Shown here: piece by piece, positions 2,112 to 28,011 of the stretch
Layout of the letters: each line of letters begins with the position of its first letter
Numbering within the stretch: position 1 is the first letter of the stretch
Assembly: GCA_045543555.1 (NCBI GenBank)
Contig: JAZQMQ010000018.1
Location: 10,985 to 74,984 of the forward strand
DNA from: Eubacteriales bacterium
Lineage (GTDB): Bacteria > Bacillota > Clostridia > Oscillospirales > CAG-272
Reading direction: 5' to 3'
Length of the DNA: 64,000 nucleotides
Translations under genes and position numbers: made by a program
The notes under the pieces: generated by a model
Databases searched by the model: none
Seen by the model: the letters and a program-made list of their open reading frames with translations, nothing else
Told to the model about the DNA's origin: nothing

Positions 2112-2957
2112 ATGGATAAATTTGACTTGACGGAAAACAAAATGAGCAACATTAAAGAAATAACGGATTTTCTTTCCCCGGAGCTTGACGTATATGCAAG
2201 GCTCAGCGAGGTTCAGCTACTGAATAACGAATTCCCCGAAAAGGGAATGTTTATTGCAGAAAGCCCGAAGGTTATTGAACGTGCCCTTGACGCAGGGTAC
2301 GAGGCGGTTTCCTGTCTTATGGAGAAAAAGCACGTTGACGGAGAAGGTAAGCGTATTCTTGACAGAATCGGCGACGTGACGATATTTGTCGCGGAATTTG
2401 ACGTTTTGACGCAGCTTACGGGCTTTAAGCTTACAAGAGGTATGCTTTGTGCAATGAGGCGTAAAAAACTGCCGTCAGTTTATGAGGTGTGCCAAAACAA
2501 AAGCAGAATAGTAATTCTCGATAAGGTTATGAACCCGACTAACGTTGGAGCTATAATACGCTCCGCCGCGGCGCTTGGAATGGACGCAGTCCTTCTTACC
2601 CCGGGATGCTCTGATCCTTTATACAGACGTGCGGCAAGAGTTAGTATGGGCACTGTTTTTCAGATTGATTGGACGTTTTTGCCCGACAACAGCCTCGATG
2701 AAATAAAGGCTCTCGGGTATAAAACGGTAGCTATGGCGCTGAAGGACGATTCGGTGTCGATAGACGATGGAAGGCTTATAGCGGAAGACAAGCTTGCAGT
2801 TGTTATGGGGACCGAGGGTGACGGTCTTTCCGATAAAACCATCGCGGACTGCGATTATACCGTTAAAATCCCCATGTATCACGGGGTGGATTCGCTTAAC
2901 GTTGCAGCCGCATCGGCGGTGGCGTTCTATCAGCTTTGCAAAAAAGCGCAGCCATAA
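2112..2957 (+). CDS. TrmH/SpoU-family RNA 2'-O-methyltransferase
   Basis: SpoU methylase motifs are present: NPTNVGAIIRSAAALG, VMGTEGDGLS, IPMYHGVDSLNVAAASAV. Confidence 0.85.
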   Translation: MDKFDLTENKMSNIKEITDFLSPELDVYARLSEVQLLNNEFPEKGMFIAESPKVIERALDAGYEAVSCLMEKKHVDGEGKRILDRIGDVTIFVAEFDVLTQLTGFKLTRGMLCAMRRKKLPSVYEVCQNKSRIVILDKVMNPTNVGAIIRSAAALGMDAVLLTPGCSDPLYRRAARVSMGTVFQIDWTFLPDNSLDEIKALGYKTVAMALKDDSVSIDDGRLIAEDKLAVVMGTEGDGLSDKTIADCDYTVKIPMYHGVDSLNVAAASAVAFYQLCKKAQP

Positions 2958-2971
2958 GGCGCGGTGATGAA

Positions 2972-3109
2972 ATGAAGAATAAAAAGGCTTCGGACTTTGT
3001 GATTTTGGATCAGTCAAACGCCGTTGGGCACGGGATTCCCATGCTTGAAAATATGCATTATATAAACGGTGTGTTCTCGGGGCTTGAAAGAGAAAGGGAA
3101 GTGATCTGA
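2972..3109 (+). pseudogene. Short relic resembling the N-terminus of a sialate O-acetylesterase/SGNH-type esterase
   Basis: A 45-aa ORF, MKNKKASDFVILDQSNAVGHGIPMLEN..., resembles the LAGQSNMxGRG block. It has no continuation. Confidence 0.25.
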
Positions 3110-3360
3110 GTGTATCCAAGACAAATAATCTTAAACCAATAAAGGAGAATTACAATGAATTCGAAGGCCAAAGACTGTTGTCTCTTATGAATAAAAACGT
3201 AGCCATAGGATATGAGGCTGCAAATCATTATTATTTCTCAAAGGGGCAAATCGTAGAGAAAATCGTTAACTGCGAATATCTGATAGATGTTTTCAGGAGA
3301 AAAATTGTCGCTCCCTCTCGATGACCGCTGACGAGTGTTCGAACAATTAAGGAGTTATGT

Positions 3361-3885
3361 ATGAATAAAATACTGATAGTTGTAGATATGCAAAAGGATT
3401 TCGTCGACGGTGCTCTCGGAACGAGAGAGGCGGTTTCGATCGTTGATAACGTTGTCGGCAAAATTGAGAGCTTTAAAGGTGATGTGATCGTTACGTACGA
3501 TACCCATAATGAAAACTATATGGAGACTATGGAGGGCAAAAATCTTCCCATTCCCCATTGTATCAAGGGTACTGACGGCTGGAAACTTGATTTGAAGGTG
3601 CAGGAGGCTCTGAACAAAAGGGAATATAAGACGATAGAAAAGCCCACCTTCGGTTCAACCGAGCTTGTTCGTTACATCAAGGAAAAATACGGCAAAAATG
3701 ATCTCGATATTGAGCTTGTTGGCTTGTGCACCGATATATGTGTCGTTTCAAATGCGCTTCTTTTAAAGGCAGATTTTCTTGATGCCAAAATCAGCGTTGA
3801 TTCTACCTGTTGCGCGGGAGTGACCGTTGACAGCCACAGCGCTGCACTTACTACAATGAAAATGTGTCAGATAGACGTAAGGTAA
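3361..3885 (+). CDS. Isochorismatase-family cysteine hydrolase (nicotinamidase-like)
   Basis: ILIVVDMQKDFVDGALG, and the catalytic Cys context LVGLCTDICV. Confidence 0.8.
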   Translation: MNKILIVVDMQKDFVDGALGTREAVSIVDNVVGKIESFKGDVIVTYDTHNENYMETMEGKNLPIPHCIKGTDGWKLDLKVQEALNKREYKTIEKPTFGSTELVRYIKEKYGKNDLDIELVGLCTDICVVSNALLLKADFLDAKISVDSTCCAGVTVDSHSAALTTMKMCQIDVR

Positions 3886-4371
3886 AACAGCAAGCAAATA
3901 TGCAAATGGAATCTGGAATTGATACGGGCGACCAATGGTCGCCCGTCTTTTATTTTTATGATATTTTTTGATATACAAGATAGCATATCCAATATATTGC
4001 ACGAGAAGTGCAACGGAATACGATATCCAAGCGGAAATTCGGGTTAAGCCTATAAGTGATAATTCAATAACGGTAAGGCATGCGAGGACAATGTAAATTG
4101 TAAATGCCATGCTTCTCGCCTTGTGAACGATCGAGATGTTTCTTTCGTCTGTTTCCGCGATCTCCTGCCTTTTAAGTGTCTCCTCGTTTCTTGTTATAAG
4201 GCGGTGGTTTCTTATACGGACAAGTCCCATAACGATCATTGCAAAGCCCAATGCGGAGATAAAACTGTTTTCGGTGTTGATTATGAGTTCGCAAACAATT
4301 ATTGCTATGCCGAGAATTATATATACAATACCAACGTATAGCCTGGTTTTAAGTCTCTTTTTAAAATCCAT
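3763..4371 (-). CDS. Four-TM membrane protein partnered with the XRE regulator; its C-terminal roughly 60 aa are probably spurious read-through
   Basis: The start overlaps the XRE stop (TAATG). Four hydrophobic helices are followed by KKYHKNK. The ORF then runs through the convergent terminator hairpin and 123 nt of the hydrolase gene. Confidence 0.6.
   Translation of the reverse strand: MDFKKRLKTRLYVGIVYIILGIAIIVCELIINTENSFISALGFAMIVMGLVRIRNHRLITRNEETLKRQEIAETDERNISIVHKARSMAFTIYIVLACLTVIELSLIGLTRISAWISYSVALLVQYIGYAILYIKKYHKNKRRATIGRPYQFQIPFAYLLAVLPYVYLTHFHCSKCSAVAVNGHSRATGRINADFGIKKICL
3924..3957 (+). terminator. Rho-independent terminator after the hydrolase gene
   Basis: A 10-bp GC-rich stem, acgggcgacc/ggtcgcccgt, has a 3-nt loop and is followed by cttttattttt. 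Confidence 0.8.
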
Positions 4372-16851: not shown

Positions 16852-18555
16852 TTATATATTGTTGTCCATCCAGCTCCAACGGTTTACTATAAAGTCACGG
16901 ATATATTGAATATGGGACTGGTAGGTCTTGTATTTTGTAATGCTTTTAGGCTGGGGGCTTACGGCTCTTTTTCCGAGTACGTTCCAAACCTTGAAGTTAT
17001 ATTCTGCACTTACAGAGAGTGTTTTTCCCATTTCGTCAACACAGTACAGTGCTTTTTCAAGAAGATCGTCCTTCGCCTCATCCCAGCGAAGCTTAAGCTT
17101 TGCTTTGAATGCAGGATCTTTCATGAGATAACACATCCAGTTGTCGTCGATATATTCGTGCTTTTGGGAAAGATTTGCCCAGGATGTGTAGTCACCGAAA
17201 TCGTTGTACAGATTACCCATTGCAAGATCGTAATCCCAAATAGGACCCATTTTAAGCAGTCCGCCGCTTTCCTTCATTATGAAGCAACTGCGTCTGAAGC
17301 AGGATTCGAGATTGTAGAAAAGCTCTGTGGATATAAACCAATCGATAAGATAGTCAACGTCGATATAGTTTTCGTAACCGTTTAAGGTTTTGACCGCTGA
17401 ATTTGCTTTTTTTACGTAATCTATAATGAAGTTTGCTTGTTCCTTTATAATTTTATCATCTTCGGGATATTCTATTGAGCAGTAGCGCACAAGGTCGGTG
17501 TGCAATGCGGTAAGACCGTATTGATCGTCGTCTTCAACACCTCCTATTTCTATAAGGAAGGAAGTGTCTGCTTCGCCGTTGTCTTTGGGAAGATCGATTC
17601 TGTTCTCCGAGATGTCTCTGTCCTCCCCTATAGTGTATACACCGATATATACACCGTTCAAAAATACGTTTACGGGGTATTGAGAGAGCGGACAAAGCTC
17701 GTGTGAGAGTACCTTTGAGGTTTCGTGTGCCACGAAATTTCTTATTAGTGAGTAATCAGCGTAGTTTGCAAGAAGTATCCATTTTTTTGCTTCTGCCATG
17801 CCGAGAACTTCGGTCTTATTATAAAATTTAAGCTTGTACGGCTTTTTCGCCCAACCCCAAGTGGAATTTCCTCTTCCTTTTATCTCTGCTCGGGTAGGCT
17901 CAAGTGATGCAAATCCCTCCGGAAGATACCAACCGTTAACGCCTTCGGCATCGATTGTGACCATGGCATCAATATATTCTTCTTTCGAGACAATTCCTTT
18001 TCCTTCTTCGGTGTCTATGCTTATTACAGGAATTACATTACCGCTGTATTCAACTATTATTTCATATTGTTTTGTGAGACCGTCGTTATCGGTCAGCGTG
18101 ATGTAGCAATTGTCTGTCAAATTGACCTTGCCACCATTGTTGGCACTTGAAAATTCGACCGTTGCGGCATCTGCTTCAACGTCAACAATCGCATTTTTCA
18201 GAGTGAATGAGTCTGTTGGAGCAATGACGGTGAAGATTGCTTTACCATCTTCAATAACAGCGGTCAGACTCTCGCACATATTTTTATTTTTGTTTTTATC
18301 GACCGTCAATGAGATAAGAAAGCAGCTTGGCTTCGGTGGCTCGGTTGTTACCTCCTCGGTTGTTGTTATCGCCTCTGTCGTTTCAGCTTCCGTCGTTTCT
18401 TCGGTTTTTGTGGTGGATGACGGAGTGTTTGGCTGGGTTATGGGGGCGGTTTCAGTTTCGGTAAACTTTGGGGCAGAGTTTTTCTCTGCACAGCCTACGG
18501 CAGAAAAAAGCAACGAGACTGAAGCAAGAATTAATGCGATTAGTCGTTTGATCAT
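16852..18555 (-). CDS. CotH-family (spore-coat-kinase-like) lipoprotein with a Thr/Glu-rich linker
   Basis: Lipobox LFSAVGC. The linker is TETETAPITQPNTPSSTTKTEETTEAETTEAITTTEEVTTEPP. CotH blocks KKPYKLKF, LLANYADYSLIRN and GPIWDYDLAMG are present. Confidence 0.8.
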   Translation of the reverse strand: MIKRLIALILASVSLLFSAVGCAEKNSAPKFTETETAPITQPNTPSSTTKTEETTEAETTEAITTTEEVTTEPPKPSCFLISLTVDKNKNKNMCESLTAVIEDGKAIFTVIAPTDSFTLKNAIVDVEADAATVEFSSANNGGKVNLTDNCYITLTDNDGLTKQYEIIVEYSGNVIPVISIDTEEGKGIVSKEEYIDAMVTIDAEGVNGWYLPEGFASLEPTRAEIKGRGNSTWGWAKKPYKLKFYNKTEVLGMAEAKKWILLANYADYSLIRNFVAHETSKVLSHELCPLSQYPVNVFLNGVYIGVYTIGEDRDISENRIDLPKDNGEADTSFLIEIGGVEDDDQYGLTALHTDLVRYCSIEYPEDDKIIKEQANFIIDYVKKANSAVKTLNGYENYIDVDYLIDWFISTELFYNLESCFRRSCFIMKESGGLLKMGPIWDYDLAMGNLYNDFGDYTSWANLSQKHEYIDDNWMCYLMKDPAFKAKLKLRWDEAKDDLLEKALYCVDEMGKTLSVSAEYNFKVWNVLGKRAVSPQPKSITKYKTYQSHIQYIRDFIVNRWSWMDNNI

Positions 18556-19619: not shown

Positions 19620-19780
19620 GTCAGTAAATCTCTATGCAATTCTACTCCTGGGCTTTTTAACGGCGTGATCGTATCGAAGGCCCTTAAATATTGCATATAT
19701 TATTTTGAATATACGGTGAACACGCTGTTACGTGCCACCTTATATTATAAATTATTATTATGTTTTGGAGGAAACCCAAG

Positions 19781-22003
19781 ATGAAAAGAACCAGACTTCT
19801 GTCTCTTCTTCTTATCGTTTTTCTTGTAGTTGGCGTTCTCGCCGGCTGCTCAGAGAAGAAGGACAAAGGCTACGTTTTCGATCCCGCTGACGTAGTCGCA
19901 CACAAGTCCTACACCTCCGTCTACGATGAAATCGGTTCCAAGATCACCGCAGACATGGTTGTAGAAAAAGACGGTTTTGCTTACGTTACCTATGAGGGCG
20001 TAGAGTATGAGCTTGGTATGGACTTCCTGTCCATGGCTATGGTTTATAACTGCACTCCTAAGGGCAACTTCAAGACCGCTGAAGAGGTTTACAACTTCTG
20101 GTGGAAGCTCTATATGCAGAGATGGAACTATCTCGCTCCTGAGATCCCGCTCTATTCCAACCAGTACTTCGACCTCTACAACGCTAAGATCGAAGGCTTT
20201 GAAACCACTCCTTACTGGAGTGCTGCTGATGCCATCATCAAGGCAACCGTTAAGACTGAAGACAACTCCGTAATTCTCGGCTCTTCTACCGAGCTTTCCG
20301 GCGCTTTCCGTAACTCCAGCTGGGGTAAGTCTTCTCCCGGATCTTCCGACCTCGATATCCAGAACCTCACCTCCGGACACGGCACTGTTCAGACCGGTCC
20401 TGACGGCGCAATGCTTTGGAATATGCAGGCTCTTGCTGCGGTTCCTACCTCTGTTAAGAACGAGGACGGCACTCTCACCTACACCATCAAGGTTAGAAAC
20501 GACCTTAAGTTCTCCGATGGCTCCGCTATCAACGCAAAGAACTACATCGTATCTATCCTTGCTAACTCCACCGCTGTTGCAGTAGCAGCAGGCGGAACCG
20601 GTAACTCCGGTATGCAGATTGTTGGTTATGATGCATTCAAGGGCTATGAAGGCAAGAACGATGGCCAGGCAGTGCTTGACAAGGATGGCAACGCTACCGA
20701 CGTTGTTGCTTCCAAGTACTTCTCCGGCGTTAAGCTTATCGACGACTACACCTTCTCCATCACCTTCCTTGCTGATTACGCAGATTACTACTATGTAATG
20801 TCCTACGCTTCCTACTCTCCCGTTCCTATGGCTCTCTATGCTGGCGAGTACGACATCATCGTAAACGACGACAAGAGCTGCGGTCTTGCTGACGGCTTCT
20901 ATGCTAAGGCAACCAAGGACGGCGTTGAGCAGTACACTATGGCTGAGGTTATCGTCAACAACCTCAAGTGGGATTCCGCTCTTCCTTACTCCGGACCCTA
21001 CGTAGTTAAGAACTACGACGCTGCTAACCTCATCGCTACCCTCGAGCTCAACCCCAACTATCCCGGTGACGACGCTCGTGGCAAGGCTACCATCAAGACC
21101 ATCACCTACGTAAAGATGGTTTCTGAGACTCAGATGGACCAGTTCAAGACCGGTCAGATCGACGTTCTCGCTGGTATCACCGGCGGTGCTGACACCAAGG
21201 CTGCTCTTGCACTCGTTGCTGAGAGCCCCGACAAGTATGCTGAGACTCACTATGACCGTGCAGGTTACGGTAAGCTCGCATTCCGTGGCGACCTCGGTCC
21301 TACCGCTATGGTAGAGGTTCGTCAGGCAATCATGTACACCATCAACCGTCCTGAGTTCGCTCAGAACTTCACCGGCGGTTACGGTTCCGTTGTTCATGGT
21401 CCTTACTACACCGGTATGGCTGCATACAAGGCAAATGAGAGCATTCTCAACCTTAACCCCTACGCATACAGCTCCGACAGCGCTATCGAAGTTCTCGAAG
21501 AGGGCGGTTGGATCTACAATAAGGACGGCTCTGAATACGACGCAGAAAAGGGCGGCGTACGTTACAAGAAGCTTTCCGGCTTCGAGCTCTCCGAGCAGAA
21601 CCTTAAGTACTCCTCTATCGACGGTAAGTACAAGACCGTTAAGGTAGGCGAAGACTTCTATATGCCTCTTGCAATCAACTGGTACGGCACTCAGCCTAAC
21701 GACGTTACCGACCAGCTTATCACTGCATGGCAGAACAACCCCAACGCTACTACCGCAATCGGTATGTACATCACCTACACCAGCTGTGATTTCAACTCCG
21801 GTCTCTACGGTGAGTACCTCCAGATCGAGCAGTACGGTTGGGACGGAGTTGCTAAGTGTGCCGCTATCAACTTCGCTACCGGCTTCACTTCCGCAATCTA
21901 TGATCAGTCTTACTACTGGACTATCAACCAGGATTACTACGCAGACTACTCCAACAACTACATCATGGATGAGGCTGACTTCTGGGAGAACTACACTAAG
22001 TAA
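19781..22003 (+). CDS. Oversized (about 740 aa) family-5 (Opp/Dpp-type) ABC substrate-binding lipoprotein
   Basis: GGAGG lies 8 nt upstream of the ATG at 19781. Lipobox VLAGC. Family-5 SBP character is seen, for example FSDGSAINAKNYI. The protein is about 200 aa longer than typical OppA/DppA. Confidence 0.8.
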   Translation: MKRTRLLSLLLIVFLVVGVLAGCSEKKDKGYVFDPADVVAHKSYTSVYDEIGSKITADMVVEKDGFAYVTYEGVEYELGMDFLSMAMVYNCTPKGNFKTAEEVYNFWWKLYMQRWNYLAPEIPLYSNQYFDLYNAKIEGFETTPYWSAADAIIKATVKTEDNSVILGSSTELSGAFRNSSWGKSSPGSSDLDIQNLTSGHGTVQTGPDGAMLWNMQALAAVPTSVKNEDGTLTYTIKVRNDLKFSDGSAINAKNYIVSILANSTAVAVAAGGTGNSGMQIVGYDAFKGYEGKNDGQAVLDKDGNATDVVASKYFSGVKLIDDYTFSITFLADYADYYYVMSYASYSPVPMALYAGEYDIIVNDDKSCGLADGFYAKATKDGVEQYTMAEVIVNNLKWDSALPYSGPYVVKNYDAANLIATLELNPNYPGDDARGKATIKTITYVKMVSETQMDQFKTGQIDVLAGITGGADTKAALALVAESPDKYAETHYDRAGYGKLAFRGDLGPTAMVEVRQAIMYTINRPEFAQNFTGGYGSVVHGPYYTGMAAYKANESILNLNPYAYSSDSAIEVLEEGGWIYNKDGSEYDAEKGGVRYKKLSGFELSEQNLKYSSIDGKYKTVKVGEDFYMPLAINWYGTQPNDVTDQLITAWQNNPNATTAIGMYITYTSCDFNSGLYGEYLQIEQYGWDGVAKCAAINFATGFTSAIYDQSYYWTINQDYYADYSNNYIMDEADFWENYTK

Positions 22004-22036
22004 TTTCTTCCACAACTGAAATATCAGTGAACTAAA

Positions 22037-22150: not shown

Positions 22151-23173
22151 ATGGGCAAATATATGTTGAAGAGAATGGTATATATTGTTCTCGTCTTCTT
22201 TATCCTCTCGTTCCTGCTGTTCATGATTTACAATATGGTTCCCGGTGCGGACAAGTCTTATGAGTATGCAAAAGCAGAATGGCAAGTTAATAAGCAGCTC
22301 GATCTTGATGAACGTGTTGCGTATTGGCAGGAAAAATTAGGAACGAACGGTACTAAATTTGAAAGATATCTCCGTTGGATCGGAGTTTACCCCTATAAAA
22401 ACGGCTCATTTAATGGAATACTGCAGGGAAATTTCGGAACTTCAACGAAATTTGCCAAGCCAGTAATTGAAGTTATAAAGGAGCCGATGGAAAATACGAT
22501 ATTTATTAATATTTTTGCTACTATTCTCGCACTCGGTATCACTATACCGCTCGGCATCTTCTGTGCTGTCAAGCGCGGAAGCAAGCGAGACGTAGGAGTG
22601 CAGGTCGGTACTATCGTAGGCTACAGTTTGCCGATTTTTATTATTGCGATAGTGTTCATATGGGTGTTTGCGGTGTTACTGGGCTGGTTCCCGGTATCGG
22701 GTATGCAAAACGCAAATTATCTTAGCTGGCCTAAGTGGAAGCAGTTCCTTGATAAGATGTATCATCTGTCACTTCCCCTTATCGTTATGACCTTTACGTC
22801 TCTGGGCGGTATGACACGTTTTGTCCGTGCATCCATGATCGAGGCTCTTTCCATGGACTGTATCCGTACCGCACGTGCAAAGGGCTTAAGAGAAAAGGTA
22901 GTTATCTATACTCATGCGTTCCGCAATGCGCTTCTTCCCATTACTACCCTTATTATCGGATGGTTCCTCGGAATTTTCGGCGGATCAATGATGATCGAAA
23001 ATATTTTTGCTCTTAACGGTATAGGTAAAATCTATTATGATGCTCTTCAAGCTTCTGATAATGAACTTGTACTCGGTCTTCAGCTGTTCTACATAACCAT
23101 CGCACTTGTCGGTAATCTTCTTATCGATATCGCGTACGGTCTTGTAGACCCGCGTGTTCGTGTCAATAAGTAA
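22151..23173 (+). CDS. OppB/DppB-type ABC permease
   Basis: Starts MLKRMVYIVLVFFILSF. Also carries the BPD_transp_1 core ...CIRTARAKGLREKVVIYTHAFRNALLP.... Confidence 0.85.
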   Translation: MGKYMLKRMVYIVLVFFILSFLLFMIYNMVPGADKSYEYAKAEWQVNKQLDLDERVAYWQEKLGTNGTKFERYLRWIGVYPYKNGSFNGILQGNFGTSTKFAKPVIEVIKEPMENTIFINIFATILALGITIPLGIFCAVKRGSKRDVGVQVGTIVGYSLPIFIIAIVFIWVFAVLLGWFPVSGMQNANYLSWPKWKQFLDKMYHLSLPLIVMTFTSLGGMTRFVRASMIEALSMDCIRTARAKGLREKVVIYTHAFRNALLPITTLIIGWFLGIFGGSMMIENIFALNGIGKIYYDALQASDNELVLGLQLFYITIALVGNLLIDIAYGLVDPRVRVNK

Positions 23174-23187
23174 GGAGGCAGTATAAT

Positions 23188-25146
23188 ATGAAAAACGAAA
23201 ACAAAAATACTGCCAAAAAGAACGGCATCTTCTCAACTATCAAGCGTTGGGGCAGACGTATGTTCTTCGGCGCAAGCAACGAGATGTCAAAGGACGTTCT
23301 TTTCGTTGAAAAGATTGAAAGCCCGTCCGTTATGGCTGTTAAGGCATTCTTCCGCAGAAAGCTGGCAGTTGGAGCTCTTGTGGTGCTTGTTTCCTTGTTC
23401 CTTCTTGTATTCATCGGACCGCTCGTTATGCCGATGGATCTTAACTATGAGGATCCCCTTCAGGCAAACATTGCGCCTACGCTTTCTATGCTTGATGTTC
23501 CTAAGGCAGTTAAAAATGACGTTAAAACTATCACTGGATTTTCTAACTTCACAATAGGACTCAATAATTCCGGTAAGGTATACCTTTGGGGTAATACCAA
23601 TGATGCACTTTCCAACGTTGATTTTTCCGATATTCCCGATGAAGTAAAGAACGGTAAGGTCGCTTATATCGCATCGGGTTCCGACCACATTATTGCAATT
23701 ACCGAGGATGGAAAGATCATCGGTTGGGGTGATAATACCGTTGGTCAGTACGGATATGTGAAGAATGAAAACGATCCGTACATTCAGATGCCAAGCGAGT
23801 TTATAGAAGGCACAATTGATGCATCTAAGGTCGATCAGCTTATCTGCGGCTTCCAAGCAACAGGTCTTATTGTCGACGGACAGCTGCATATGTGGGGAAA
23901 CACAAATGCACTTCTCAGCTTGAAGGAATATTCCGAAGGCAAACTTCCTAGCGAGGGTGTTAAGAAGGTTGCTTTCTCAAACTATTATGCGCTTCTTCTT
24001 ATGGAGGACGGAACCGTAACAGGCGGTACTACACTGTCCCTTAATCAGACTGGATATTCCAGCACTGAAGGCAAGATTAAGAATCTCGGTGCTTATCTTG
24101 AGGGAAAGACTGTAGTTGATATTGCTGCTACAAACAACTGCTATTCTTTGGTAATGGCAGACGGAAGCGTTATCGTGTTCGGAAGCTTTCAGTACGGCGA
24201 AACTGATTTCCCGAAATTCGCAAACGGCGAAAAGGTTGTATCCGTTACCTCAGGTACACGTCACTTTGCTGTAATCACCGATAAGGGTCTGGCTTACACT
24301 TGGGGTCACAATGACCACGGTCAGGCAAGCCTCAAGGGTGTTCCCGCATCCGAAGTATATTGCGGATCCAAGCAGACCTATATTGTGAATGAAAACGACG
24401 ATGTAACCGCAAAGGCAGGTCTTAAGGGCTACCTTATGGGCACCGATAACCGCGGAAGAGATGTTCTTACACGTATCATCCACGGCGGTAAGATGACTAT
24501 GACGGTCGGTGCTGTTTCGGTTATTGTTTCGACGATTATTGCTATTATTGTTGGATGTATTTCCGGATATTTCGGTGGTTGGGTCGATATGCTTCTGATG
24601 CGTGTTACCGAGATTTGCTCATCTATTCCTTTCCTGCCGTTTGCAATGATGCTTTCATATGTACTTAATACAACAGATTTGAGTAATTACGGAGATCAGG
24701 ATAAAATCAGGATATTTATCATAATGATAATACTCGGACTCCTTTCTTGGCCGGGTCTTGCAAGAATGATTCGTGCACAGGTGCTTGCAGAGCGTGAAAA
24801 GGAATTCGTGGTTGCAGCTAAGTCAATGGGTGTTAAGGAAAGCAAGATCGCATTCAAGCACATCCTGCCTAACGTTATTTCGATAATTCTCGTTAACGTT
24901 ACTCTCGATTTCGCAGGTTGTATGCTTACCGAGTCCTCGCTTTCTTATCTCGGATTCGGCGTTCAGCTTCCTCAGCCTACTTGGGGTAATATGCTTAATG
25001 GTGCTAAAAACAGCCTTGTTATCCAGAATTATTGGTGGCAGTGGGTATTCCCGGCAATCTTCCTTGCAATTGCAACCATCTGTATCAACATTATAGGCGA
25101 TACGCTCCGTGACGTCTTCGACCCCAAGAGCAGCAGTGAAAGATAA
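23188..25146 (+). CDS. OppC/DppC-type ABC permease with a roughly 310-aa RCC1-like beta-propeller inserted in the first extracytoplasmic loop
   Basis: TM1 covers residues 59-81. Residues of about 100-410 contain six or seven repeats of the type GKVYLWGN, GKIIGWGDNTVGQYG, GQLHMWGN, GSVIVFGSFQYGE, GLAYTWGHNDHGQ. The canonical LMGTDNRGRDVLTRIIHG motif and permease core follow. Confidence 0.8.
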   Translation: MKNENKNTAKKNGIFSTIKRWGRRMFFGASNEMSKDVLFVEKIESPSVMAVKAFFRRKLAVGALVVLVSLFLLVFIGPLVMPMDLNYEDPLQANIAPTLSMLDVPKAVKNDVKTITGFSNFTIGLNNSGKVYLWGNTNDALSNVDFSDIPDEVKNGKVAYIASGSDHIIAITEDGKIIGWGDNTVGQYGYVKNENDPYIQMPSEFIEGTIDASKVDQLICGFQATGLIVDGQLHMWGNTNALLSLKEYSEGKLPSEGVKKVAFSNYYALLLMEDGTVTGGTTLSLNQTGYSSTEGKIKNLGAYLEGKTVVDIAATNNCYSLVMADGSVIVFGSFQYGETDFPKFANGEKVVSVTSGTRHFAVITDKGLAYTWGHNDHGQASLKGVPASEVYCGSKQTYIVNENDDVTAKAGLKGYLMGTDNRGRDVLTRIIHGGKMTMTVGAVSVIVSTIIAIIVGCISGYFGGWVDMLLMRVTEICSSIPFLPFAMMLSYVLNTTDLSNYGDQDKIRIFIIMIILGLLSWPGLARMIRAQVLAEREKEFVVAAKSMGVKESKIAFKHILPNVISIILVNVTLDFAGCMLTESSLSYLGFGVQLPQPTWGNMLNGAKNSLVIQNYWWQWVFPAIFLAIATICINIIGDTLRDVFDPKSSSER

Positions 25147-25166: not shown

Positions 25167-26186
25167 ATGGCACTTTTAGAAGTAAAAAACCTTCATACCT
25201 TCTTTAAAACAAGAAAAGGTATTGTAAAGGCTGTAAACGACGTTTCTTATTCTCTCGAATCCGGAAAAACCATCGGTATCGTTGGCGAGTCGGGCTCGGG
25301 TAAGAGCGTTTCGGCAATGAGTATCCTTCAACTTCTCGACGGAAATGGCTACATTGCCGACGGAGAGATCATTTTCGAGGGCACAGACTTAACAAAGCTC
25401 ACCCAGGATCAGATGTACGATATCAGAGGTAACAAGATATCCGTCATCTTCCAGGAGCCTATGACGAGCTTGAACCCCGTTTTTAGCGTTAAAAAACAGC
25501 TCAGCGAGCCTTTTATGATCCATCAGAAGATGAAAAAGAAGGAAGCTGAGGCAAAGGCTCTTGAAATGCTCTATGCAGTTCAGATCCCCAATCCCGAGCA
25601 GGTAATGAGACAGTATCCTCATCAGCTTTCGGGCGGTATGCGTCAGAGAGTTATGATAGCTATGGCGCTTGCATGCAGACCTAAGATCCTTATCGCCGAT
25701 GAGCCCACTACCGCTCTCGACGTTACGATTCAGGCTCAGGTGCTTCGTCTGATGAATGATCTTCAGAGAGAAAACGGCACTTCAATTATATTCATAACAC
25801 ACGACCTCGGCGTAATCAACGAGATGGCTGACGACGTCGTTGTTATGTACTGCGGTCAGGTTGTCGAGCAGACCTCCGCAAGAACTATTTTCACGAACTG
25901 TCCCGTAAGCCATCCTTACACGGAAGGACTTATGTACAGTATTCCGAGAATAGACAATATTACCGAAAAGCTCGAACCCATTCCGGGTGTTGTTCCTCAT
26001 CCTCTGGCACTTCCCAAGGGATGCAAATTCGCGCCCAGATGTAAATATGCAACGCAAAAATGTCTTGAAGAGGAGCCTCCGTTGCTTGAGGTAAATCCCG
26101 GACAGAAGGTTCGTTGTTTCTATCCCGATAAGGAGGTGCGAAACAGTGTCGAACACCAACAAACTGTTGTCAATAACAAACCTTAA
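25167..26186 (+). CDS. OppD/DppD-type ABC ATP-binding protein
   Basis: Walker A GESGSGKS, signature LSGGMRQR, Walker B LIADEPTTALD. The C-terminal oligo_HPY motif has CKFAPRC. Confidence 0.9.
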   Translation: MALLEVKNLHTFFKTRKGIVKAVNDVSYSLESGKTIGIVGESGSGKSVSAMSILQLLDGNGYIADGEIIFEGTDLTKLTQDQMYDIRGNKISVIFQEPMTSLNPVFSVKKQLSEPFMIHQKMKKKEAEAKALEMLYAVQIPNPEQVMRQYPHQLSGGMRQRVMIAMALACRPKILIADEPTTALDVTIQAQVLRLMNDLQRENGTSIIFITHDLGVINEMADDVVVMYCGQVVEQTSARTIFTNCPVSHPYTEGLMYSIPRIDNITEKLEPIPGVVPHPLALPKGCKFAPRCKYATQKCLEEEPPLLEVNPGQKVRCFYPDKEVRNSVEHQQTVVNNKP

Positions 26187-27795
26187 AAAGTATTTCCCGA
26201 TAGCAAAGAGCCACATTTTTCAGAAAAATCAGCTCTACGTAAGAGCTAACGAGGAAATTACCATAGACATTATGCAGGGTGAGACCTTCGGACTTGTCGG
26301 TGAATCGGGTTGCGGTAAATCCACTCTCGGAAGAACCGTGCTCCAGCTTTACGATCAGACCGCGGGAAGCACAATGTACTACGGACGTACTGTTGCAGAT
26401 CTTGCCCCTAAGTACGTCGAAAAAACATTGAAAAATGCTCCCAAAATGATCGCGCTCTATCACAAGGCGCAGAAAAAGGCAGACGATCTTGCAACGCAGT
26501 GTGAGGAGCTCGGCGACAACGCTACGTTCTTCCAGCTTCAGAACAAGAACCTTGCAGCTGCAGAGGCTGAAACGGCTTTCAATAACGTTGTTAAGATCCT
26601 CGGCGGATTTGCTGCTCTTGACGATTGCCGTACAGGAGCTGACCTTCTTCTTAAGAAGTACAAGACCGACGTTGCTATCGCTAAGCTCAACGAGAAGATC
26701 AGACTTGTTGACAATGAGATCGATTTCTGCGAAGCTTCTGTAAAAGAGCTTAAAAATTCTGCGGACAGAGTTAAAGCAGAGAAGAAGATTCATTCATTTA
26801 ATGCAAAGAAAACGAAGTTCGTTGCTAAGAAGAAAAAGCTCTCATCGGAAATGGATAACCTGCTTAAGGTCCTTGATGCTGACAATGCCGCAATCGATGC
26901 GCTCAAGTCTCAGCACGTAGGTGATGAGAAGTTTGACGAATACGAAAAGCATCTCGACACAGGCCTTGATTTGAGCCGTCTTAAGTATTCCGAAATGAGA
27001 CTTCTCCGCAAGGACGTTCAGATCATTTTCCAGGATCCTTATTCTTCGCTTAACCCCCGTATGACTGTCGGTCAGATAATCGAGGAAGGACTTGTAACAC
27101 ATAAGTACTTCAAGCACGGTTCTCCTCAGATGAAGGAATACATCATCGAGATCATGCGGCGTTGCGGACTTCAGGATTATATGATCCACCGTTATCCTCA
27201 CCAGTTCTCAGGCGGTCAGCGACAGAGAATCTGTATCGCGAGAGCTTTGGCTGTTAAGCCTCAGTTCATCGTATGCGACGAGTGCGTTTCCGCTCTTGAC
27301 GTTTCCATTCAGTCTCAGATCATTAACCTCCTTGAAGAACTCAAGGAAAAGGATAATCTCACATACCTCTTCATTTCCCACGACCTTTCTGTCGTAAGAT
27401 ACATTTCCGACCGTATTGGTGTTATGTATCTTGGAAATATGGTAGAGCTCGGAACTGCAGAAACAATATTCAAGGATCCCAGACATCCTTATACTGTTGC
27501 ACTTCTTTCCTCCATACCCACAACCGATATGGAGAGCTTGACCAAGGAGCGTATTATCCTTGAGGGTAATATCCCCAGCCCGATCAAGCCCCCGGAGGGA
27601 TGTAAGTTCCACACACGTTGCTACATGGCTTGTGATAAGTGTAAGAGAGTTCCTCCTCCTTATGTTGAGGTTGATCCCGGACACTTTGTTGCTTGTCACT
27701 TCCTCGATAAGAAGATTGATGAGAACGGTAACTATCTCTTTGATGTTCCCACAAGAACCAGAAACACTAGAGTAACTGAGCCTGATCAGGAGTAA
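26146..27795 (+). CDS. OppF/DppF-type ABC ATP-binding protein with a roughly 195-aa predicted coiled-coil insertion
   Basis: A GTG start follows AGGAGG. Walker [10 protein letters not shown] is at residues 52-60. A long K/E/A/L-rich segment covers residues of about 86-280. Then come [22 protein letters not shown] and [11 protein letters not shown]. Confidence 0.85.
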
Positions 27796-27798
27796 TTT

Positions 27799-28011
27799 AT
27801 GCGCTTCGGACTCAAAAAAGAGGCACATATAAAGTCGGAAGAAAGAATGCTTGAGGATGAACTTAAGCTGAAAGAGGAGATCAGCAAGGAAGGTGGATTT
27901 GATAAGCACGATGCTGTTGCAATGATCATATCTGCTTACATTGTAATTGTTCCCGTTGTTCTTCTGGCGCTGTGTATTATGCTCGGCATTGGATATCTTC
28001 TGTTTACGTAA
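27799..28011 (+). CDS. Small (70 aa) single-pass membrane protein, translationally coupled to the ATPase gene
   Basis: AGGAG is 6 nt upstream and the gene starts 4 nt after the upstream stop. A charged N-terminal half (EERMLEDELKLKEEISKEGG) is followed by one TM helix. Confidence 0.5.
   Translation: MRFGLKKEAHIKSEERMLEDELKLKEEISKEGGFDKHDAVAMIISAYIVIVPVVLLALCIMLGIGYLLFT

Follow-up and report, generated by a model that had tools for sequence, protein, structure and literature searches.

A seven-bladed RCC1-like propeller inserted into an OppC-type permease of gut Clostridia

Type I ABC importers are thought to show their binding proteins a fairly bare outer face. Canonical OppC and DppC permeases (8z21_B and 8z1v_B of E. 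coli, and Rv1282c of Mycobacterium tuberculosis, 8j5q_C) have 287-302 aa and a loop of ~13 residues between TM1 and TM2. An OppC-type permease encoded in the window analysed here (64,000 nucleotides of an Eubacteriales bacterium, assembly GCA_045543555.1, contig JAZQMQ010000018.1, positions 10,985 to 74,984 of the forward strand) has 652 aa, with an RCC1-like propeller in that loop. This raises the questions of whether the additional domain truly belongs to the permease, on which side of the membrane it lies, and what it may do for the importer.

The inserted domain, its fold and its side of the membrane

The gene (23188..25146 of the window, on the + strand, as are all features below) is one open reading frame without interruption. 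Its OppC_N segment (23320..23478, aa 45-97; Pfam OppC_N, 36.2 bits for a cut-off of 23.9) includes TM1 (nt 23359-23433, aa ~58-82, with a hydropathy maximum of 2.94) and the conserved post-TM1 stretch NYxDPLQANxAP; Y87, N94, and P97 of the protein are invariant, even in relatives at 35-40% identity. The permease core (24424..25143, aa 413-652; BPD_transp_1, E 1e-36 over aa 452-647) opens directly with the conserved GYLMGTDNRGRD motif and continues with TM2-TM6 and the EAA loop. Between the OppC_N segment and the GTDxxGRD motif ahead of TM2 lies an insert of ~315 residues (aa ~98-412). In the alignment to E. coli OppC (8z21_B), aa 50-87 correspond to residues 29-66 of the chain and aa 413-648 to residues 80-301 (E 1.8e-48), with ~325 residues in place of the loop of ~13. 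The sequence-only reading had put the insertion at this very point, in an uninterrupted frame flanked by intact permease sequence, and the single frame, the Pfam matches on either side, and this alignment bear it out. Every motif that it quoted is found in the 652-aa frame: PMDLNYEDPLQANIAPTLSM (aa 82-101), GKVYLWGN (aa 129-136), GKIIGWGDNTVGQYG (aa 175-189), GQLHMWGN (aa 231-238), GTVTGG (aa 275-280), GSVIVFGSFQYGE (aa 326-338), GLAYTWGHNDHGQ (aa 367-379), and LMGTDNRGRDVL (aa 416-427).

The protein thus has both parts that define an OppC/DppC-type permease, an OppC_N segment and a BPD_transp_1 core with its EAA loop, and it shares OppC_N TM1, GTDxxGRD, and the core with the canonical chains. 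The best NCBIfam model is Opp4C (303 bits, under its cut-off of 350), and no equivalog among Opp4C, OppC, DppC, NikC, and others reached its cut-off, the rest being further below than Opp4C. Judged from sequence, the importer is a complete ABC system of the Opp/Dpp family (type I), with this protein as its OppC-type membrane subunit, and its substrates, by family membership, are most likely peptides.

The insert proper (23485..24420, aa 100-411) is identified as an RCC1-like seven-bladed β-propeller by Pfam, AlphaFold2, and Foldseek. RCC1_2 (83.1 bits, cut-off 22; E 8.7e-24) and RCC1 (38.6 bits, cut-off 21.7) both score above their Pfam thresholds, and among PDB sequences the insert matches UVR8 at 1e-20, as well as HERC2, RPGR, RCC1, and BLIP-II (the latter at 1.4e-8). 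WD40_RLD also matches (E 6e-33), in two partial stretches whose 115 bits fall below the gathering score of 150 for a full-length canonical RLD. The AlphaFold2 model gives aa ~100-412 a pLDDT of 80-95 and arranges them in seven blades or strand groups, of the six or seven that had been counted in the sequence. These start at aa ~112, 158, 215, 258, 309, 350, and 389 (nt 23521, 23659, 23830, 23959, 24112, 24235, and 24352). The blades are ~39-57 aa long, shorter than those of canonical RLDs, and the last has three strands only, which the N-terminal linker (aa ~100-111) probably complements. The top 50 Foldseek matches listed against the PDB are all RCC1-like propellers, led by UVR8 (E 7e-16) and with RPGR, HERC2, RCC1, and the bacterial BLIP-II among the best. 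The insert is a compact, divergent RCC1-like member, like BLIP-II, and that a seven-bladed propeller of this kind stands between TM1 and TM2 of OppC is close to certain.

BLIP-II (1jtd_B, 3qi0, 3qhy) is the closest, and the only, bacterial solved structure among the RCC1-like matches listed. It is also a compact seven-bladed propeller with short blades (Foldseek target TM-score of 0.72-0.73, ~23% identity), and it is extracellular and binds a protein. However, BLIP-II is a separate chain of ~270 aa co-crystallised with TEM-1 β-lactamase (as judged by length and entry names), whereas the domain described here sits inside a 652-aa permease and is not a free secreted inhibitor of the BLIP-II type; no β-lactamase link was seen for it. 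The repeat signature and the seven-bladed fold are common to RCC1, UVR8, RPGR, and HERC1/2 as well. Eukaryotic RCC1-like domains are cytosolic or nuclear, have repeats of 51-68 aa, and serve as GEFs, photoreceptors, or adaptors; the insert differs from them by its shorter blades, its lower WD40_RLD score, and its probable extracytoplasmic location.

This location is suggested by the positive-inside rule, the count of six TM helices, and homology to solved OppC/DppC. The N-terminal 60 residues of the protein contain 14 K/R for 5 D/E, and the insert contains 23 K/R for 39 D/E. With six hydrophobic helices, of which the hydropathy scan detects five and TM3 was assigned by eye and from AlphaFold2 helices, the EAA loop falls in the cytoplasm, and the equivalent TM1-TM2 loop of solved OppC/DppC chains is flanked by the same conserved segments. 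The charge bias and the alignment agree with the earlier expectation that the insert faces outward, and the propeller is very probably extracytoplasmic, in the first outer loop. None of the three outcomes named beforehand as refuting that reading (no significant RCC1 or propeller hit, no predicted propeller fold, a cytoplasmic segment) occurred. The AlphaFold2 model of the membrane part is poor (pLDDT <50), so the orientation of the propeller cannot be read from it. The N-side linker to the membrane domain is conserved and spans ~15-30 residues, and the C side is nearly devoid of linker, with the last strand ending at aa 411 and GTD beginning at aa 418. Such a join would set the propeller directly on the outer face of the permease, adjacent to where the solute-binding protein (SBP) must dock.

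Distribution of the fusion and composition of the operon

The fusion is present in at least 438 stretches of GTDB species representatives. In the best 80 of these 438 the whole insert is covered, and all 80 belong to gut Clostridia. More than 120 protein clusters carry the full-length architecture at 65-92% identity, and it is intact in distant members whose insert is only 35-52% identical. The same architecture is found in 80 of the 80 genome loci fetched, with an identical insertion point everywhere and a full-length propeller of seven blades in every locus. With these clusters and loci, the claim of a real domain fusion, as opposed to a neighbouring gene, holds; the rarity that the sequence-only reading implied does not, the fusion being common in gut Clostridia. 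An artefact (a mis-joined neighbour gene, a frameshift, or a cytoplasmic insert) is effectively refuted already, since the frame is uninterrupted, the fusion recurs in independent assemblies from many studies, and charge bias and homology put the loop outside. Hence, the fusion is real and common to hundreds of gut species.

The carriers are almost all uncultured, and their proteins are annotated merely as 'ABC transporter permease subunit'. The literature search found no paper on RCC1 together with OppC, permease, oligopeptide, or BPD_transp_1. A search of representatives with the insert alone is dominated by giant multi-repeat RCC1 proteins and indicates no clear donor lineage for the domain.

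The operon has the partners of canonical OppC/DppC permeases. OppB, two oligo_HPY ATPases, and a family-5 SBP surround OppC in the window and in the 80 loci, and the order SBP, OppB, OppC-RCC1, OppD, OppF is kept in all complete loci. The OppB-type permease (22151..23173) has 340 aa, a BPD_transp_1 match at E 1e-37, and Opp4B as its best NCBIfam model (238 bits). The OppD-type ATPase (25167..26186, 339 aa) contains ABC_tran and oligo_HPY, with NCBIfam OppD as its best model (394 bits). The OppF-type ATPase (26146..27795, 549 aa) has oligo_HPY too, and ABC_tran matches it in two stretches. A helical insertion of ~180 aa (nt ~26428-26970, aa ~95-275) separates its Walker A region from the Q-loop; NCBIfam OppF aligns from aa 273 onward only. 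Among loci, OppF varies from 345 to 603 aa, and the helical insert is often present.

A small conserved ORF follows (27799..28011, 70 aa), with a charged N-terminus, one C-terminal TM helix, and no Pfam match. Its homologues have 62-75 aa and share GGLEK.D..AM..SA. In 48 loci one of them stands directly after OppF, which has at least 526 aa in all 48, and a homologue is called in loci L001 and L084 too. This one-TM protein is a probable sixth member of the operon.

The SBP (19760..22003, 747 aa) is a family-5 lipoprotein with the lipobox LAGC, and it is oversized and rearranged. SBP_bac_5 matches aa 230-627 (E 7e-33), and the nearest solved structure is OppA 9p48 (profile E 5e-31), to whose C-terminal tail positions 109-166 align, which indicates the rearrangement. 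The N-terminal extension has no self-similarity to the rest of the protein, which does not support a simple internal duplication as its source. An SBP of 716-837 aa lies beside nearly every RCC1-OppC (one ORF call in L075 has 1191 aa). Literature searches found no paper for PDB 9p48 and no open-access paper on an Opp/Dpp complex structure.

Outside the operon, gene content is not conserved. A census of 123 flanking ORFs from ~65 loci finds no family in more than 10, and nothing among the flanking genes (CAZymes or peptidases, for instance) hints at the substrate. Downstream of the operon, the window has SGNH-like and histidine-phosphatase genes, which are not conserved as partners across loci.

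Covariation, conservation, and the possible role of the propeller

The propeller may serve the unusually large lipoprotein SBP of its own operon as a docking platform, recruiting, orienting, or retaining it by protein-protein contact. RCC1-like propellers of known function bind proteins, as in RCC1-Ran, UVR8-COP1, RPGR-PDE6D, and BLIP-II-TEM-1 (these being among the PDB matches). The best functional analogy for such a role is MalF P2 of E. coli MalFGK2-E. It, too, is a large folded domain that the permease of a type I importer carries in an extracytoplasmic loop, and it extends above the membrane and binds its cognate SBP; docking of the SBP on the propeller would resemble the way in which the P2 loop holds MalE. 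P2 binds MalE throughout the transport cycle and has been described as unique to the maltose system (PMC6906923). The two domains are not homologous, and the likeness is an analogy only: P2 is Ig-like, has ~185 aa, and lies between TM3 and TM4 of MalF, whereas here TM1 and TM2 of OppC are separated by an RCC1-like propeller of ~315 aa.

The docking reading draws on rate covariation, which in this operon is strongest between propeller and SBP (partial r of about 0.5), a signal confounded by shared extracellular drift. Pairwise distances over 63 operons were compared by partial correlations between subunits. The distances of the propeller follow those of no other subunit as closely as those of the SBP (r 0.83), and the propeller-SBP partial correlation, 0.51, is the largest in the matrix, which also recovers known contacts (0.47 for OppC-TMD/OppD and 0.42 for OppD/OppF). 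The signal is 0.45-0.50 after Poisson, gamma, and rank transforms and 0.42 in a fast-column control, and none of 999 label permutations reached its value. By part of the SBP, it is 0.30 for the core, 0.16 for the C-terminal part, and 0.04 for the N-terminal extension. The near absence from the extension, which is what makes this SBP unusual, argues against docking. Moreover, propeller and SBP are both extracellular, fast-evolving, and acidic (net charges of -13 and -37), and from species to species the net charge of one follows that of the other (r 0.78), so that rates may covary by shared charge drift without contact. Electrostatic complementarity between the two was rejected because both are acidic.

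A comparison of the two propeller faces on the AlphaFold2 strand map finds no difference in conservation (0.53 versus 0.54, p 0.71), which also counts against docking. It is among the points in favour of a structural or positional role, by which the propeller would stabilise or assemble the complex and stay outside the transport cycle. It could space or anchor the complex within the thick Gram-positive wall, or mediate oligomerisation. The rigid, almost linker-less attachment to the TMD fits such a role, as does the high divergence tolerated (mean p-distance over the 63 operons of 0.51 for the propeller versus 0.17 for the TMD), as for a scaffold with few specific contacts. However, the retention of all seven blades at full length over hundreds of species suggests more than a passive spacer, and the specific covariation with the SBP is left unexplained; this role is improbable.

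No part of the operon evolves faster than the propeller, a point in favour of an interaction at the cell surface that has no bearing on transport, the permease being just an abundant membrane protein on which the domain is displayed. The propeller could then mediate attachment to the host or to other cells, or be a receptor or decoy on which phage or immune factors, for example, impose diversifying selection. Large surface and toxin proteins of bacteria often contain RCC1 repeats (e.g., with RHS or PKD domains), and all carriers among the best 80 of 438 are gut-associated. Yet the identical insertion point, the invariant operon, and the co-occurring special SBP tie the propeller to the transporter, and no paralogous free copies or variable cassettes of it were seen; a role of this kind is very improbable.

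The propeller could instead bind the transported ligand or a bulky precursor, for subsequent transfer to the SBP or the translocation pore, candidates being long, modified, or glyco-peptides and wall fragments. Its position at the outer mouth of the permease is favourable to such capture, covariation with the SBP is expected under ligand hand-over as well, and, of the loop classes, the A-B loops around the central channel are the best conserved in the close family (0.70-0.75). Permease-fused substrate-binding domains offer a parallel: in GlnPQ and OpuA, extracytoplasmic domains of SBP fold are fused at the permease terminus, in place of a free SBP. They are likewise accessory extracytoplasmic domains covalently joined to the TMD of a type I importer, but the insertion described here is internal, has a propeller fold, and coexists with a separate SBP gene. 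There is also a precedent for a propeller, AztD, an extracytoplasmic β-propeller that is the zinc chaperone of AztABC and hands zinc over directly to the SBP, AztC (PMC6689063). AztD is free, eight-bladed, has defined zinc sites, and is not RCC1-like, whereas the propeller of OppC is part of the permease chain and has no conserved site of a metal type. Across the broad family, its invariant residues are nearly all RCC1 structural positions (G, W, GQ, G..H), and members that are 35-60% identical share no polar or aromatic cluster beyond this structural signature, which argues against one fixed ligand site. No RCC1-like PDB match is named for a small-molecule ligand, a full SBP is kept in the operon, and the flanking genes give no substrate clue. 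Substrate capture is unlikely on these grounds, and the lack of a conserved pocket is more in line with a protein interface that co-evolves than with a fixed site for a small molecule.

Docking of the SBP on the propeller is put forward tentatively, as the covariation analysis suggests it with somewhat less than even confidence. Taken as a whole, a propeller fused into the OppC loop and serving as a docking platform for the SBP is the best explanation, at a confidence slightly short of even. A bolder interpretation, which is rather doubtful, would make the propeller an obligatory third extracytoplasmic component of the transport cycle, either a receptor on the permease that selects or gates the SBP, or a second substrate site. 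The operon would then represent a distinct and previously unrecognised sub-class of type I importers, restricted to uncultured gut Clostridia, with its own substrate class and regulation, and marked by the propeller, the rearranged SBP of 750 aa, the helical insert of OppF, and the small one-TM protein.

The nutrition and signalling of the carrier species rely centrally on peptide uptake, and a whole clade-specific transporter design, shared by hundreds of gut species, has gone unremarked in the literature searched. Bacterial RCC1-like propellers gain with it a membrane-embedded, extracytoplasmic context. If the propeller does stand at the docking side of the SBP, it would be a second domain in such a place, unrelated to the first and much larger, and would provide an independent natural test of how accessory domains influence the recruitment of binding proteins and their coupling.

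Organization and fold of the fused permease

The permease is encoded by a single ORF of 652 aa (23188..25146, + strand). The sequence-only reading had claimed an RCC1-like propeller at 23485-24420, inserted in an uninterrupted frame into the first extracytoplasmic loop of an OppC-type permease. These positions correspond to aa 100-411, every peptide motif that it quoted is found in the frame at the claimed place, and the frame is indeed unbroken. Pfam describes a three-part protein, composed of OppC_N (aa 45-97; 36.2 bits, cut-off 23.9), RCC1-type repeats (aa ~106-400; RCC1_2, RCC1, and WD40_RLD), and BPD_transp_1 (aa 452-647; E 1e-36). The RCC1 assignment holds at 83.1 bits for RCC1_2 (cut-off 22) and 38.6 bits for RCC1 (cut-off 21.7). 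By the tested criteria, the insert belongs to the RCC1-like propeller superfamily, and the protein to the OppC/DppC permeases. In alignments to solved structures, residues 29-66 of Escherichia coli OppC (8z21_B) pair with aa 50-87 and residues 80-301 with aa 413-648; hence, a loop of ~13 residues in canonical OppC is replaced by ~325 residues. Mycobacterium tuberculosis Rv1282c and E. coli DppC show the same split.

Closer assignments are ruled out by the same criteria. A canonical full-length RLD is one of these: WD40_RLD matches the insert with E 6e-33, yet its 115 bits are below the cut-off of 150, reflecting blades (39-57 aa) that are shorter than classical RCC1 repeats. Nor can the protein be equated, at equivalog level, with a named Opp, Dpp, or Nik permease. 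The top NCBIfam model, oligopeptide permease Opp4C, aligns only from aa 413 on and scores 303 bits, below the equivalog cut-off of 350.

The propeller fold is borne out by an AlphaFold2 model built from A1, an alignment of 56 sequences, in which aa ~100-412 are all-beta (pLDDT 80-95) with seven strand groups starting at aa ~112, 158, 215, 258, 309, 350, and 389. The top 50 Foldseek matches in the PDB are all RCC1-like propellers, with UVR8 first (E 7e-16), followed by RPGR, HERC1/2, WBSCR16, and RCC1; the highest target-normalised TM-scores (0.72-0.73; rmsd ~4-5 Å, ~305 columns) are those of the compact bacterial BLIP-II. Only three strands are modelled in the seventh blade, which we infer to be closed by the N-terminal linker (aa ~100-111), whose LDVPKAV stretch is similar to the motif found in the outer strands of the other blades. 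The ends of the insert would then come together, as needed for an inserted domain. The membrane part of the model is poor (pLDDT <50), because A1 contains close relatives only, and says nothing on the orientation of the propeller.

A hydropathy scan finds five strongly hydrophobic segments; a sixth helix, TM3 (~aa 472-495), was assigned by eye and from the AlphaFold2 helices. With six helices and the N-terminus inside, the EAA loop is cytoplasmic. The first 60 residues contain 14 K/R versus 5 D/E, and the insert 23 K/R versus 39 D/E. This charge bias, the helix count, and the alignment to solved OppC/DppC chains support the proposed outward-facing insert, and the propeller very probably lies outside the cell.

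Distribution of the fusion

The fusion is common. A search among 5.8 billion proteins gives 2128 matches at E <1e-10. Among the matches listed, all 120 (65-92% identity) have 624-658 aa and an identical domain string; the closest (92%) comes from a sequencing-run assembly, and the few with names are annotated as [quoted passage not shown] or "peptide/nickel transport system permease." Such sequences are already public, under generic names. When cluster representatives are searched with the insert only, giant multi-repeat RCC1 proteins dominate, and there are also single-stretch matches (P0130, P0219, P0232, and P0268; 668-728 aa) that have OppC_N, RCC1, and BPD_transp_1 too, with just 35-52% identity in the insert. 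The insertion point is identical in all members of the insert-only alignment A2, and a scan of GTDB with A2, one genome per species, gives at least 438 confirmed stretches. The best 80 of the 438 cover the whole insert at 40-61% identity. These are all from Clostridia of the animal or human gut, nearly all MAGs, and include Oscillospiraceae/Faecousia, Christensenellaceae, Candidatus Scatosoma, and Clostridium sp. CAG:448; the species of the window is absent from these 80. With the propeller intact across hundreds of species, the probability of an artefact is negligible.

Two cases deserve mention. MAG RGIG4556 carries the entire operon on two contigs (L079 and L081) with identical gene lengths, either a recent duplication or binning/assembly redundancy. 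P0200 (597 aa) keeps blades 3-7 and the permease core, but what normally precedes them (the cytoplasmic N-terminus, TM1, and two to three leading blades) has given way to a lipoprotein-like signal peptide plus proline-rich, low-complexity sequence, joined in frame; this may reflect either a chimeric assembly or genuine truncation.

The operon and its large binding protein

The gene order SBP, OppB, OppC-RCC1, OppD, OppF is found in every complete locus. Conservation ends with the operon: the 123 flanking ORFs include no CAZyme, and each Pfam family among them is seen at most 10 times. Hence, the downstream GDSL-like and histidine-phosphatase genes of the window are incidental, as is the divergent upstream gene for a CotH-kinase-family protein (567 aa; 16852..18555, - strand), which is not conserved beside the operon in other genomes. 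The remainder of the window is ordinary chromosome. In the human gut contig with P0232 (L084), a Mur-ligase-family gene (2564..3922) lies directly upstream of the SBP; the window has none, and this neighbour is a weak hint at muropeptide recycling.

The SBP (19760..22003, + strand, in the window) has 716-837 aa in nearly all loci (the ORF call of L075 has 1191), versus ~500-560 aa in solved OppA/DppA/NikA. Among solved proteins, it is closest to binders of peptides, nickel, and opines, with OppA 9p48 as the best match (profile E 5e-31). Positions 109-166 (aa ~107-163 of the 747-aa SBP), within the N-terminal extension, align to the extreme C-terminal tail of 9p48 (residues 502-559 of 562), and later residues pair with N-terminal and middle parts. 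This out-of-order alignment indicates rearrangement as well as enlargement, and points to a family-5 SBP that has been circularly permuted or rearranged in some other way; the 747 aa show no detectable internal duplication. The gene has a GC content of 0.50-0.54 (19750..22000) versus 0.42-0.46 in the rest of the operon. A stop-free antisense ORF of 721 aa lies over it (19850..22015, - strand); it most likely reflects the strong codon bias of a gene with high expression and is not a real gene.

OppF (26146..27795, + strand) owes its 549 aa to an insertion of ~180 helical, charged residues (aa ~95-275; nt ~26428..26970, + strand) between the Walker A region and the Q-loop. The OppF models of NCBIfam begin to align only at aa ~273, and Mycoplasma-type OppF/OppD models with similar insertions match in several stretches. 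Since OppF varies from 345 to 603 aa across loci, the insert is lineage-variable. Directly after OppF is an unannotated-looking ORF of 70 aa (27799..28011, + strand), which has no Pfam match; its N-terminus is rich in lysine, it contains the motif GGxxK.D..AM..SA, and a single TM helix lies at its C-terminus. A one-TM protein of 62-75 aa lies after OppF in 48 loci, in each of which OppF has 526 aa or more, and is missing from the 17 loci with OppF <490 aa; it may be a small accessory subunit tied to the OppF insert. The OppF ORF begins with GTG inside the end of OppD, giving an overlap of 41 nt (26146..26186). The overlap is also 41 nt in two other loci (L001 and L002) and 35 nt in L084, so it, or a true start just within it, is conserved. 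Clustered cysteines follow oligo_HPY in both OppD (26020..26100; CKFAPRCKYATQKC...RC) and OppF (27600..27700; a 14-residue segment ...AC). In mycobacterial OppD, and likewise in E. coli DppD/DppF, a [4Fe-4S] cluster is bound in the corresponding region.

Possible role of the propeller

The permease holds on its outer face a folded propeller of ~315 aa, with almost no linker on the C-side ahead of the conserved GTDxxGRD motif. It is the fastest-evolving part of the operon: over 63 operons, its mean p-distance is 0.51, followed by the SBP (0.38), OppF (0.33), OppB (0.27), OppD (0.21), and the OppC membrane core (0.17). We tentatively propose that the propeller is a platform on which the cognate SBP would dock or be retained. 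This would resemble the MalF P2 loop, which is Ig-like, extends ~3 nm into the periplasm, and binds MalE throughout the cycle (PMC6906923); when tested, the insert is not homologous to P2.

This proposal is supported by the fact that RCC1-like propellers of known function bind proteins, and that the propeller is always found with the special SBP; a surface function unrelated to transport seems quite improbable. Docking is also supported by the broad family, which has no residue cluster conserved beyond the RCC1 structural signature. Substrate capture or hand-over, for which AztD is a precedent (PMC6689063), is in our view unlikely. Further, in a mirror-tree analysis the partial distance correlation between propeller and SBP, with all other subunits controlled, is 0.51, the largest value in a matrix that recovers known contacts (0.47 for OppC-TMD/OppD, 0.42 for OppD/OppF). 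It stays at 0.45-0.50 under Poisson, gamma-like, and rank transforms, is 0.42 when the control is a pseudo-protein assembled from the columns that evolve fastest in the other subunits, and is reached by none of 999 label permutations. However, propeller and SBP are alike in being extracellular and acidic, with net charges that co-vary from species to species (r 0.78), so shared drift could mimic co-evolution. Charge complementarity between them is absent, the covariation sits in the SBP core and not in its unusual N-terminal extension, and neither propeller face stands out for conservation. A structural or wall-spacer role appears improbable, and docking of the SBP is the reading retained here, at somewhat less than even confidence.

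Accessory domains outside the cytoplasm are already known from permeases of type I importers, MalF P2 being an example, and in GlnPQ and OpuA substrate-binding domains are fused to importer permeases. Targeted full-text searches of the literature found no description of an RCC1-like propeller inside OppC. In conclusion, the fusion is real, widespread, and, in the literature searched, apparently unstudied, and OppC-RCC1 is a variant that elaborates a known transporter type, not a new kind of system.
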